In this document: one piece after another, positions 27,371-61,386 of the stretch
How the letters are laid out: every line of letters starts with the position of its first letter
Position numbering within the stretch: position 1 is the stretch's first letter
Assembly (NCBI GenBank): GCA_958436475.1
Contig: CAUBKG010000001.1
Span: forward strand, 18,069-82,068
From: an uncultured Clostridia bacterium
Lineage (GTDB): Bacteria > Bacillota > Clostridia > Oscillospirales > Acutalibacteraceae
Direction: 5' to 3'
Length of the DNA stretch: 64,000 nt
The notes under the pieces: generated by a model
The model's database searches: none
Told to the model about the DNA's origin: nothing
Seen by the model: the letters and a program-made list of their open reading frames with translations, nothing else
Program-made: the position numbers and the translations under genes

Positions 27371-27422
27371 TTTTGAGCAAAAAGCAAAGGCCGCCCATAC
27401 TGTGGGCGGATATGCGTAAAGA

Positions 27423-27464
27423 ATTGCCATGTGGCCCGCTGCACGGGCAACGGACGTAAAATCT
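27423..27464 (+). repeat. intergenic repeat family, truncated copy 1
   Basis: ATTGCCATGTGGCCCGCTGCACGGGCAACGGACGTAAAATCT shares about 38 nt with copies 2 and 3. Confidence 0.5.
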
Positions 27465-27467
27465 ATT

Positions 27468-28343
27468 TTATCCAAGCAAGTTCGGCAGCAGCATTACAAA
27501 TGTTCCGGCCACAATCGCCGAAAGCCCAAAAGCGGACTTTTTCGACAGCCGTTCGTGAAACACAACATAGGAAAACGCTATCGTAACAAGGATACTCAGC
27601 TTATCGATCGGAACGACCACGCCGGCAAGCCCATCCTGCAAGGCCTTGTAGTAGCACAGCCATGAACCGCCTGTGGCGAGCCCGGATAAGCAGATGAAGC
27701 CGAGCTCTTTTTTGGAGGTTTCCTTCAGCGTGCTTTGTTTTCCCGATACAAACACCATGATCCAAGACATAATAAGCACGACTCCCGTGCGGATCGCCGT
27801 TCCCAGATTGGATTCCACCCCGGTAATCCCCACCTTGCCGAGGATAGAGGTAAGGCTTGCAAAAACAGCAGAGCCTATTGCATAAAAAAGCCATCCTCTT
27901 CCCTTTGCGGAGGAAGTATGCATGTCCTTTTTTTCGACCATCAGGAATGTGCCTGCGGCAATCAGAATGACACCCGCGGTGCTGTATACGTTGATTCTTT
28001 CGTGCAGGAAGAGAAAAGCCAAAAGAATGGTTAAAATGGTGCTGGATTTATCAATCGGCACGACCTTATTGATATCGCCGATCTGCAGCGCCCTAAAATA
28101 GCACAGCCACGACGCGCCGGTGGCGAGCCCCGATAAAATTAAAAACAGCACTGTTTTCGCATCGATAGCCGTGAGTTGCGTCTGAGAACCCACGATCAGC
28201 ACCATGAGCCATGAAAATGCCAAAACGACAATCGTGCGAATCGCCGTTGCCACGGTGGAATCGGTTTTGCGGATGCCGCACTTTGCAAGAACGGAAGTAA
28301 CTCCTGCAAACAGAGCCGAACCAAATGCAAATAGAACCCACAT
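27468..28343 (-). CDS. EamA/DMT family transporter
   Basis: Two tandem EamA-type 5-TM halves. Confidence 0.8.
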   Translation of the reverse strand: MWVLFAFGSALFAGVTSVLAKCGIRKTDSTVATAIRTIVVLAFSWLMVLIVGSQTQLTAIDAKTVLFLILSGLATGASWLCYFRALQIGDINKVVPIDKSSTILTILLAFLFLHERINVYSTAGVILIAAGTFLMVEKKDMHTSSAKGRGWLFYAIGSAVFASLTSILGKVGITGVESNLGTAIRTGVVLIMSWIMVFVSGKQSTLKETSKKELGFICLSGLATGGSWLCYYKALQDGLAGVVVPIDKLSILVTIAFSYVVFHERLSKKSAFGLSAIVAGTFVMLLPNLLG

Positions 28344-28500
28344 ATCATCACCTCGTTGACCGGCATCCCCTGCTTTTTTGGGCCGGGCCTTTTATTATCT
28401 TTTTCCGGAGGCTGGGGAAACAATATCTGACCAGAAGCGGCGCGTGAATGATGTAATTGCCCGTCGCGCCGATCCCGCGGCGTGGTGGGCATAGCAAGAG

Positions 28501-28531
28501 CGCCTGTGTGGTTTTTTATCACACAGGCGCT
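28501..28531. terminator. hairpin GCGCCTGTGTG-loop-CACACAGGCGC
   Basis: Perfect 11-bp stem with a T-rich loop and flank. Confidence 0.4.
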
Positions 28532-28550
28532 TCTGCATTTTATAATTTCT

Positions 28551-28575
28551 ATAGATTGCAACAGGCAATCTATAA
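28551..28575. promoter_or_regulatory. inverted repeat TATAGATTGC-N5-GCAATCTATA upstream of EamA gene
   Basis: Perfect 10-bp arms. Confidence 0.4.
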
Positions 28576-28650
28576 AATTGCCCATGTTGCCCGTTGCACG
28601 GACAACGGACGTAAAATCTCAGCGCGCGGCCTCGAAGAGGCCATAGCGCA
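28568..28650 (+). repeat. intergenic repeat family, full copy 2 (about 83 nt)
   Basis: AATCTATAAAATTGCCCATGTTGCCCGTTGCACGGACAACGGACGTAAAATCTCAGCGCGCGGCCTCGAAGAGGCCATAGCGC is about 85 percent identical to the reverse complement of 60238-60322. Confidence 0.55.
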
Positions 28651-28716
28651 AAAAACAGCCGCTAAAAAACCTTGCCCGAAAAACTCCGCCTATTCGCGGC
28701 TATTGTTATATGGGTT

Positions 28717-45760: not shown

Positions 45761-45877
45761 AAAAAACACCCTGTTATAGATTGCGTATTTTTTATGGTTT
45801 CATGTACCGGAAGTCTTTTCCTGCGTATTCTCGAATGATACGCAAGTCCGCAGCAACATTTGTTCCGATGACGAAAC

Positions 45878-45923
45878 TCTCAATAAGCCAAAAGCAAGGC
45901 CATAAAAGACCTTGCTTTTTGCT
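45878..45923. repeat. 46-nt hairpin module, copy 1 (CTCAATAAGCCAAAAGCAAGGCCATAAAAGACCTTGCTTTTTGCTG)
   Basis: Near-identical copy at 46294-46337, abutting tRNA-Gln. Contains a bidirectional terminator-like hairpin. Confidence 0.5.
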
Positions 45924-46124
45924 GCCAGACTGTTACAAAAAAGATGCCCCCTCCCGCCGCAGCGGCAACCGCAAAAGGTTGGTAGTGCCATGGAGGCGTC
46001 ATGGCCGCGCTTGCAAGGCCATAGCCGGAACAAGCGTGACCTTTTGCGGAAGAGGAGGAGCAAGGTAGCGGGCGGATGTTTTCTTTGCAAAAGAAAACGG
46101 AGCAAAGCGAACTTTGCTCCGACG

Positions 46125-46148
46125 TGGCTGGGATGGCAGGATTCGAAC
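46125..46148 (-). repeat. orphan duplicate of the 3' terminal 24 nt of tRNA-Gln (not a foldable tRNA)
   Basis: TGGCTGGGATGGCAGGATTCGAAC is identical to 46338-46361, but the upstream sequence cannot form T, anticodon or D arms. Confidence 0.55.
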
Positions 46149-46293
46149 GCGTGACTCGGCTGCGCCTCACCCGCTTTTCACTCGGTCACCCCACGCTTCG
46201 CGTGCGGTACCGCCCTCGCGCTCCGTGCTAAAAACAATCCCCCGGATTGTTTTCTTAACGCACAGACCTTCTCAGGTTCCAATCCCGCCATTT

Positions 46294-46337
46294 CTCAATA
46301 AGCAAAAAGCAAGGCCATAAAAGGCCTTGCTTTTTGC
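46294..46337. repeat. 46-nt hairpin module, copy 2
   Basis: See copy 1. Confidence 0.5.
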
Positions 46338-46413
46338 TGGCTGGGATGGCAGGATTCGAACCTGCGCGATGACGGAGTCAAAGTCCGCTGCCTTACCGCT
46401 TGGCTACATCCCA
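46338..46413 (-). tRNA. tRNA-Gln (anticodon UUG)
   Basis: Hand-folded cloverleaf: acceptor TGGGATG/CATCCCA, anticodon loop CUUUGAC, T-arm GCAGGTTCGAATCCTGC, and an encoded CCA. Confidence 0.85.
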
Positions 46414-60121: not shown

Positions 60122-60237
60122 GCCGCCCTCACCTGCCTATTTATATTAATTCTATTTGTTAAAAATGTACGTATTCATTATAATTCTTTTTTCCCGATGA
60201 AGCAAATAAAATATCAAAATATCCGTTTTCTTTTTTG

Positions 60238-60322
60238 GCGCTACGGCCTCTTCGTGTCCGAGCGCTGAGATTTTACGTCCGTTGCGCGTGCAGCGGGCAA
60301 CATGGACGATTTTTATAGATTA
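60238..60322 (-). repeat. intergenic repeat family, full copy 3 (inverted orientation)
   Basis: The reverse complement matches 28568-28650 at about 85 percent. Confidence 0.55.
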
Positions 60323-60389
60323 TCTTAAAAAAACAAAAAAGCGTATATCCCGCAAGGGCATACGCTTTTTCCGGCTTTGCGGAAACCTT

Positions 60390-61055
60390 TTATTGGAAAG
60401 ACGGAGGCGTAACAGGCTTATTGGCGAAATCGGACGCGGGAGACGGATTAGACATGCTGAAATACATTTTTGCCGCCTTTGTGGTGCCGAAATCGCGGTT
60501 TGAGCCGGTGTCCTGCACCTTATTAAACGCTTCGCGGAACATTGCATTGTGTGCTTCTTCCCGGTTCAGCAGAAAATCAATGGTTTCCCGCACTTTTTTA
60601 TCTTCGATCTGACGGTATAAATATTCATACACGACCTTCGCTCTCTGTTCCGATGCGATATCGGAAAGCAGGTCGGCACATAAATCTCCTGTAACCGTCA
60701 CATAATCGCTCGTCCAAGAATAGCCGGAGGCGTTGATCAGCCCCGGATTGAGGCCGTATAGAACATGCGACTGTATTTCTCCCGCCGGGACCTTCGCGGC
60801 GTCCACGTCGTGCCCGTTCAAAAGGTTGATCGTTTGCGATACCATTTCAAGATGCCCGAGCTCTTCTGCGGCAATGTCCAGAAACAAGTCCTTGATTTCC
60901 GGATCCTTGATGCGGAAGCTCTGAGACATTTACTGCAAGGCCGCTTTCAATTCCCCATTCGCCCCGCCCAGCTGCTCCTGCAGCAGTGCGGCATATTGGG
61001 GATTGGGCGCTTCTACTCCAACCGGATGAAATAATTCCTTTTCATGCTTAAACAT
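60390..61055 (-). pseudogene. Mn-catalase / CotJC-family ferritin-like protein interrupted by an in-frame TAA
   Basis: The upstream frame MFKHEKELFHPVGVEAPNPQYAALLQEQLGGANGELKAALQ*, with an AGGAGTGG RBS, runs straight into MSQSF...EELGHLEM. The TAA at 60930-60932 replaces the conserved Tyr of the family GELAAAxxY motif. Confidence 0.65.
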
Positions 61056-61386
61056 AAAGATTCCACTCCTTTCATAAAAAAGTCTGCGCAATATTTGAGA
61101 ATTTATGCCGCTCGATATCTGAATTCGGAGCCGAGTCGGTGATAGAATAAATATTCAGCAAAGGCTGCCATGCAATGCTTGGCGTTATAAAAAATCACCC
61201 ACACGTTCGCTTTCAGTTATGAAAGTTAAGCGTGTGGGTGAGTTGTTTTCTGTATTGCTTCCGCCTTTGGGCATTCGGCAGAAGTACTTCTTATTGCACG
61301 GGCAGCCGAATGACCGCTCCCTGCATAGGCACACATCGGATTTTTTTCGTCTTCGTACCTCATTGTTCATGGAAAATTTTTTGTTG

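Follow-up and report, generated by a model that had tools for sequence, protein, structure and literature searches.

A short palindromic intergenic repeat beside a strain-variable EamA transporter block in an uncultured gut Clostridia bacterium

Introduction

Modular repeats of the Firmicutes include the BOX (A-B-C), RUP and SPRITE elements of pneumococci and the bcr repeats of Bacillus cereus. BOX-type repeats are noncoding, hairpin-forming intergenic sequences of ~40-100 nucleotides (nt), and some of their copies carry only some of the modules, while RUP-type elements possess terminal inverted repeats and target duplications. Here we describe a repeat of similar build in an uncultured Clostridia bacterium of the Acutalibacteraceae. 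The repeat is present in three copies in a 64,000-nt stretch of contig CAUBKG010000001.1 (hereafter the window), and two of these copies lie on either side of a gene for an EamA-family transporter. We argue, with modest confidence, that it is an interspersed DNA repeat comparable to the BOX elements and to the repetitive extragenic palindromic (REP) sequences.

The REP, BIME and REPIN sequences of Proteobacteria, which are associated with RAYT transposases, are short imperfect palindromes that lie between genes, often past genes and near terminators. Their copies, of which there are several in differing orientations, form a population that evolves around a master sequence (PMC3116915, PMC3337134). 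A different kind of system is formed by gene modules that are bounded by short recombination sites, namely integron cassettes with their attC sites and the dif modules of Acinetobacter (PMC6449649, PMC9455709). Both kinds are relevant to the locus described here, as the repeat is palindromic and intergenic and at the same time brackets a single gene.

Repeat copies and their anatomy

A 38-nt core, CCATGTKGCCCGYTGCACGNNCAACGGACGTAAAATCT, occurs three times in the window, at 27427-27464 (+, with 1 mismatch), 28582-28619 (+) and 60268-60305 (-), compared with an expectation of 0 matches from 100 dinucleotide shuffles. Copies 2 and 3 are complete. They have ~92 nt in common, consisting of an L arm, the core and an R hairpin, and are 88-89% identical over 74-82 aligned nt. 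The limits obtained with nhmmer and cmsearch place copy 2 at 28564-28655 (+) and the inverted copy 3 at 60232-60324 (-). Within copy 2, the L arm spans 28564-28581 (GCAATCTATAAAATTGCC), the core 28582-28619 and the R hairpin 28620-28655. Copy 1 (27419-27464, +) is a truncated version without the R hairpin: its sequence consists of a partial L arm (TAAAGAATTGCC) and the 38-nt core and breaks off at AAAATCT, which leaves 3 nt to the EamA stop codon. Copies 1 and 2 are in direct orientation with a start-to-start distance of 1155 nt, so that the three copies represent both orientations and two unrelated loci.

All three copies are located between called genes and overlap mechanical open reading frames (ORFs) only. 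The functions of their neighbours, which are ZIP, EamA, gltD-like, Mn-catalase-like and GGDEF genes, are unrelated to one another. Copy 3 is bordered by the terminator of the Mn-catalase-like gene on one side and by the promoter region of the GGDEF gene (TTGCTT-17-TATAAT) on the other. An assembly artefact can be ruled out because independent ENA and Logan assemblies of human-gut metagenomes contain the same sequences with 100% identity. The original prediction, which had been made from the letters of the window, described a three-copy intergenic repeat with ~85% identity between copies 2 and 3 over ~83 nt, a copy 1 that retains the 38-nt core, and two direct copies bracketing a single EamA gene. 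This description holds in all of these respects, and its coordinates were accurate to within a few bases. It had also listed internal inverted repeats, which are present, the better conserved of them being an 8-bp palindrome formed by GTTGCCCG and CGGGCAAC.

The L arm consists of AATCTATAAAA, followed by 4-6 nt and CCATG. The centre of the core is the palindrome GTTGCCCG-CTGCA-CGGGCAAC, in which an 8-bp stem encloses a 5-nt loop (28586-28593 / 28599-28606 on the + strand in copy 2), and this is followed by GGACGTAAAATCT. The R hairpin reads GCGC..GGCCTC-GAA-GAGGCC..GCGC and ends in an A-run. The motif AATCT(AT) is found at the L border of copies 2 and 3 as well as at the end of every core; since it is part of the conserved sequence, a target duplication and a target preference would look the same here. 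Directly upstream of copy 2, a 13-nt inverted duplicate of the L end is located at 28547-28577 (TTCTATAGATTGC / GCAATCTATAAAA).

Each core is 1 substitution away from a perfect 8-bp stem, and the affected pair differs from copy to copy. Judged by their sequences, the three cores descend from a perfectly palindromic master sequence. Among the 19 modelled pairs of the two hairpins, 9 vary between copies, and in all nine the variants are unpaired; compensatory and one-sided (wobble-preserving) changes both number 0. In strain L079, copy 3 carries 3 substitutions in a 26-nt stretch of the R hairpin, each of which breaks a different pair, and the background around this copy amounts to ~4-5 differences per kb between L079 and the window. 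The covariation analysis across copies that the original prediction had proposed accordingly found no covariation and no compensatory change. Because the substitutions break pairs and the peptide and promoter-terminator findings given below are negative, we treat the element as a decaying DNA repeat and not as an RNA gene or leader.

A GC-rich hairpin of the terminator type is found on the L side of each copy, at a distance of ~10-35 nt. For copy 1, this is terminator hairpin T1 (27391-27409), situated just past ZIP and ~10 nt away. The hairpin preceding copy 2 (28498-28532) seems to be an orphan, and that preceding copy 3 is a bidirectional terminator (60338-60371) directly behind the Mn-catalase-like gene. 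The latter gene (Mn-catalase/CotJC-like, 60390-61091, -), which lies just upstream of copy 3, is split into ORFs of 41 and 179 amino acids (aa) in the window and is intact (221 aa) in L079, the stop in the window being caused by a single base difference.

The EamA block

The EamA-family transporter gene (27468-28343, -; 291 aa) has a GC content of 50%, compared with 57-59% in neighbouring genes. It is contained in the spacer between ZIP and gltD, which measures 1346 nt (27371-28716) and has a GC fraction of ~0.48-0.53 vs 0.60-0.63 in the flanking genes. In the sister contig L094, whose lineage is that of ERZ27252946 k141_62918, ZIP is 95% identical at the protein level, and nucleotide identity amounts to 86-92% over ZIP, gltD and the upstream hydrolase gene. 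There, the spacer between ZIP and the convergent gltD is 56 nt long and holds one bidirectional terminator, and both the EamA gene and the repeat are absent. Since the L094 spacer contains neither of them, the 1346-nt block is an indel, and the question raised by the original prediction of whether the EamA gene is present or absent between the copies is answered by a real polymorphism. EamA proteins with ~80% identity are encoded in Anaerovoracaceae, Enterocloster and Butyricicoccus, where the contexts are unrelated and the repeat is missing. Taken from sequence comparison, this picture fits a horizontal acquisition of the EamA block. Some of the close EamA homologues (among P0001-P0007) are 421-439 aa long and carry a third copy of the EamA half-domain, which is an internal duplication.

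The order within the block is T1, copy 1, EamA with its leader, an inverted T0-like hairpin, the inverted L-end duplicate, copy 2 and a new gltD terminator. The T0-like hairpin (28498-28532) matches L094 1194-1225 at 30 of 32 positions and is inverted relative to the unchanged flanking genes. In L094, this segment is the sole hairpin, and terminator, of the ZIP/gltD spacer of the sister lineage. The present gltD terminator, hairpin T2 (28686-28699, -), was read from the sequence as CCGC-GAATAG-GCGG followed by a T-run and lies inside the indel block. Because the ancestral terminator is now found inverted in the middle of the block, more than one event must have shaped its history. Two separate insertions may have flanked the old terminator, together with a flip of its loop. 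Alternatively, AATCTAT (27460) and its complement (28551) may have been the end points of an inversion; the segment between them consists exactly of the EamA gene, its leader and the hairpin.

A variant haplotype (P0004; contigs L083-85) shares with the window the EamA gene, the proximal 95 nt of its leader and at least 30 nt of core 1 (99%). Beyond the shared leader this haplotype continues into unrelated DNA, and no copy 2 is present within 366 nt upstream of EamA. Exact look-ups with EamA, ZIP or gltD revealed no loss of EamA among the conspecific contigs that span the ZIP-gltD spacer. The EamA leader itself (28344-28497, -) is long and GC-rich and matches no Rfam family. Its conserved part is the proximal 95 nt; the distal leader of the variant haplotype (L083 1-366) is an unrelated sequence with a TTGCCG-17-TATAAT promoter and a 17-bp inverted repeat.

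Distribution and copy number

Within the ~82 kb of genome formed by the window and ~18 kb of flanks on the same scaffold, nhmmer and a covariance model run with filters off found the 3 copies and no fourth one. An exact-pattern scan with TGCACGNNCAACGGACGTAAAATCT gave 0 matches in the GTDB representatives (one genome per species) and 0 in the JGI metagenomes, and a shortened version of this pattern gave 0 matches in IMG/VR. The gapped pattern CCATG-N19-23-GGACGTAAAATCT matched 36 times in the JGI metagenomes; as none of these matches carries the palindrome, we consider them to be due to chance. Searches with blastn against plasmids and phages gave no match. The nhmmer and covariance models likewise found nothing in 57 loci taken from GTDB genomes with the closest relatives of the gltD-like gene (best identity, only 73%), so that the copies in close relatives which the original prediction had suggested looking for did not turn up in these loci. 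The same models found no copy in the loci of EamA and ZIP homologues, and a synteny search for ZIP, EamA or the hydrolase near gltD homologues in other Clostridia was negative as well. As far as these collections show, the repeat family is restricted to the poorly represented clostridial lineage of its host, which, by the names of the closest homologues, probably belongs to the Oscillospirales.

The Logan assemblies, which are built with k = 31, break reproducibly at the cores. ZIP-side contigs from three samples end at 27463, and those on the EamA side, which come from three other samples, start at 27435. Exactly this pattern would result from one shared 31-mer node at 27434-27464, the stretch that reaches from the private substitution of copy 1 to the end of the core. 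In two further assemblies, gltD-side contigs end at 28610, inside copy 2, and Logan contigs pass straight through copy 3. Breaks at the cores are seen in DRR684292, DRR684393, SRR28282554, SRR33453274, ERR13967624, SRR33453059, DRR588407 and DRR327063. The breaks imply either further identical copies or co-occurring strains that differ in the DNA joined to the cores.

Comparison with known systems

The element resembles REP and REPIN sequences in being an imperfect palindrome outside genes that is present in multiple copies and both orientations near terminators, and any effect on mRNA 3' ends is likely to be incidental, as for REP. It differs from them in that it has no GT[AG]G head, the palindrome being preceded by CCAT or, on the other strand, by ACGTCC. 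Its cores are single and do not form an inverted REPIN/BIME pair, the only inverted feature of this kind being the 13-nt L-end duplicate beside copy 2, and no RAYT gene, in REP systems a single-copy Y1 transposase gene with the repeats on its flanks, is among the called or scanned genes of the 82 kb. Its host belongs to an uncultured gut clostridial lineage and not to the Proteobacteria. REP sequences number tens to hundreds of copies per genome; of the element, 3 copies are present in 82 kb, with at least one more inferred from the breaks at k = 31. The likeness to BOX-type repeats concerns build, no sequence relationship being seen: the element is modular (L, core and R), occurs in partial copies, measures ~40-100 nt, forms hairpins between genes and is noncoding. 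In contrast to RUP, it shows no terminal inverted repeats and no clear target duplications, and in contrast to miniature inverted-repeat transposable elements (MITEs), no terminal inverted repeats join the ends in both full copies.

What the locus shares with attC- and dif-bounded modules is one accessory gene that lacks a recombinase of its own, lies between hairpin-capable repeats and forms part of a lineage-variable block. However, attC sites are palindromes of 57-141 nt with R'' RYYYAAC and R' GTTRRRY at their ends, and the element carries its palindrome GTTGCCCG...CGGGCAAC in reversed order, departs from the R/Y pattern and has L and R ends that are not complementary. Unlike an integron, the block contains a single gene and no cassette array, and no integrase is found in the window or next to the block. 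Unlike in dif modules, the flanking repeats are direct and not opposite, and the core has no 11-6-11 arms of the 28-bp XerC-6 nt-XerD type. The direct orientation of the repeats, their identity of only 92% and an empty site without any copy set the locus apart from both attC and dif systems. The element does not belong to the REP/RAYT family as defined, and it is likewise no MITE, attC site or dif module; in its mode of action it resembles a REP sequence, as far as can be judged.

Interpretation and alternative explanations

The element is repeated, lies between genes, is absent from the orthologous spacer of the sister lineage and is free of constraint on coding or RNA structure. We judge it moderately probable that it is a lineage-restricted, modular, palindromic and noncoding interspersed DNA repeat of the REP/BOX-like kind, which lodges by terminators and decays, and that two of its copies are associated with a horizontally acquired, strain-variable EamA block. 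Copies would lodge in either orientation in intergenic DNA, a few to ~35 nt from intrinsic-terminator hairpins, and would then decay by point mutation and truncation, copy 1 being such a truncated version. Their spread might depend on a trans-acting function encoded elsewhere in the genome or on recombination. The effect on the cell would be incidental, for instance through additional hairpins in 3' untranslated regions with an influence on mRNA decay or termination. The copies close to the two ends of the EamA block might have arrived with the acquired DNA or might have provided short homology for its integration.

Several observations weigh against this interpretation. The two full copies have no terminal inverted repeats in common, copy 3 is flanked only by A/T runs, no target-site duplication was identified, and neither was a mobilising enzyme. 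Core 1 is tightly tied to the EamA stop codon in two haplotypes, which random dispersal fails to explain. The copy count comes from 82 kb with 3 copies, a fourth being inferred and never seen. Finally, the family was found in no other genome of the collections searched, and its mobility rests on one presence/absence comparison.

In an alternative explanation, the core would be a recombination site and EamA a single-gene cassette, moved by a trans-acting recombinase or by direct-repeat recombination in the manner of integron cassettes, Xer-dependent dif modules or att-flanked cis-mobilisable islets. The original prediction had put forward such a cassette, and the direct repeats 1155 nt apart around one gene, the low GC content of the block, the ~80% identical EamA homologues in unrelated contexts across clostridial families and the lack of the entire block in L094 all agree with it. 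So do the position of core 1, which abuts the EamA stop codon in two haplotypes with differing upstream DNA, the breaks of the k = 31 assemblies inside cores 1 and 2, and the presence of two tyrosine recombinase genes 0.7-2.5 kb beyond the left window end. The structure of the empty site, however, speaks against it: L094 has no core there and hence no attB-like target, and copy 2 is not a hybrid attL/attR, since both of its arms, L and R, are those of the solitary copy 3. Furthermore, L083-85 have no second copy within the 366 nt upstream of EamA, all conspecific contigs recovered by the exact look-ups and spanning the site have EamA, no cassette-like gene lies beside copy 3, and the cores are mutually only 92% identical. 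The sequence fits neither the attC motifs (RYYYAAC...GTTRRRY) nor the 28-bp Xer site, and no recombinase adjoins the block; among the called or scanned genes of the window there is no transposase or recombinase, and the 18 kb flanks contain no transposase domain. We regard mobilisation of EamA as a cassette as unlikely on these grounds. A simple Campbell insertion into a resident element was rejected, since the sister's empty site is free of the core and the block now encloses the ancestral terminator T0. A more specific version, in which uncultured gut Clostridia possess an undescribed cassette system that uses the ~40-nt hairpin core as its recombination site and moves single accessory genes such as EamA between chromosomal intergenic sites, with the recombinase encoded elsewhere and the breaks at cores 1 and 2 reflecting alternative strain junctions, strikes us as a long shot.

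The remaining alternatives assign the element a function in the cell. It might encode a small RNA or a leaderless micro-ORF of 20 codons (MLPVARTTDVKSQRAASKRP / MLPAARATDVKSQRSDTKRP), with paralogous copies. Its folds are better than those of shuffled controls, with the best values on the strand opposite to the earlier consensus (z of -4.5 for copy 2 and -2.8 for copy 3), and the ATG and TAG of the micro-ORF occupy the same positions in copies 2 and 3. The changes in L079 include one that is synonymous, one that alters the last codon and one past the stop, and a sigma-70-like site at 60156-60184 (+) together with the bidirectional terminator at 60338-60371 could frame a transcript of ~180 nt across copy 3. 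Nevertheless, covariation is zero, and each substitution in a stem disrupts base pairing. For copies 1 and 2, the promoter predictions include none within or ahead of the copy that is consistently oriented, and no promoter/terminator pair frames the element alike at the three sites. Copy 1 lacks the R hairpin and the stop codon of the micro-ORF, which has no Shine-Dalgarno sequence, and 5 of the 7 in-frame differences among copies change an amino acid. A concatenated six-frame peptide query, aimed at spurious ORFs called on other copies, returned nothing from 5.8 billion proteins even at E = 10. In Rfam searches of both loci up to an E-value of 10, no family reached its gathering score and none at E<1 overlapped a copy, in agreement with the earlier statement that no riboswitch was recognised; the best sub-threshold match on the element was rmf, with 18 bits vs a threshold of 45 (E = 1.7), and the only gathering-level matches of the window were RNase P, two tRNAs and a TPP riboswitch. 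The element is moreover absent from the ZIP-gltD spacer of the sister lineage. A small RNA or peptide gene is on balance quite improbable. Even less can be said for an operator or promoter module (TTGCCC, a 19-nt spacer with dyad, and TAAAAT, with MerR-like spacing) through which a dimeric regulator would co-regulate the neighbouring genes, a proposal that we hold to be highly improbable. Its hexamers and palindrome can be read directly in the sequence, and copy 3 lies upstream of the GGDEF gene and is co-oriented with it, but that gene has a good promoter of its own (TTGCTT-17-TATAAT) downstream of copy 3. From copies 1 and 2, transcription would run into the 3' ends of convergent genes, the promoter scan made no call on the element, no regulator gene adjoins the copies, and the palindrome is degraded differently in each copy. 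Of the three options offered by the original prediction, the REP/MITE-like one fits best, while those of a cassette and of a small-RNA family were not borne out.

Four further candidates were considered and rejected. The spacing does not fit a sigma-54 promoter, and the sequence does not fit a parS/dif-like site. A solitary CRISPR repeat was dismissed as the window contains no array and the 3' part of the element was nowhere found as an array, and a remnant of group II intron domain V as there is no Intron_gpII match and the helix geometry is wrong.

If the interpretation as a REP/BOX-like repeat is correct, the element adds one more small interspersed repeat family, from a poorly sampled gut clostridial lineage in which few such repeats have been catalogued. 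In practical terms its value is modest: it explains reproducible contig breaks in short-k metagenome assemblies. The repeat also marks the strain-variable insertion that brought a horizontally transferred DMT/EamA transporter, and it could serve as a strain-typing marker. Its importance would be greater if the cores were recombination junctions for single-gene modules, which the data do not favour.

Other features of the window

The rest of the window is ordinary chromosome with thiamine genes, RNase P RNA, type IV pilus genes, ClpB, RuvC and others. The two tyrosine-recombinase genes beyond its left end (L080 13226-15954; 296 and 335 aa) lie beside spoIIM and are probably housekeeping genes of the XerC/XerD type. 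The last 24 nt of a tRNA-Gln gene (46338-46361) are repeated exactly at 46125-46148, and a 47-nt terminator-like sequence beside this tRNA (46293-46339) is repeated at 45878-45924 with 96% identity. These repeats bracket a 101-aa ORF (window 45800-46413) and look like what is left of an insertion at the 3' end of the tRNA. In the type IV pilus neighbourhood, a stretch of ~1.5 kb (L078 18.5-20 kb, corresponding to ~52.3-53.9 kb of the window) is hypervariable in comparison with L079, with hundreds of differences per kb vs ~4 elsewhere, and the protein encoded there measures 476 vs 496 aa.

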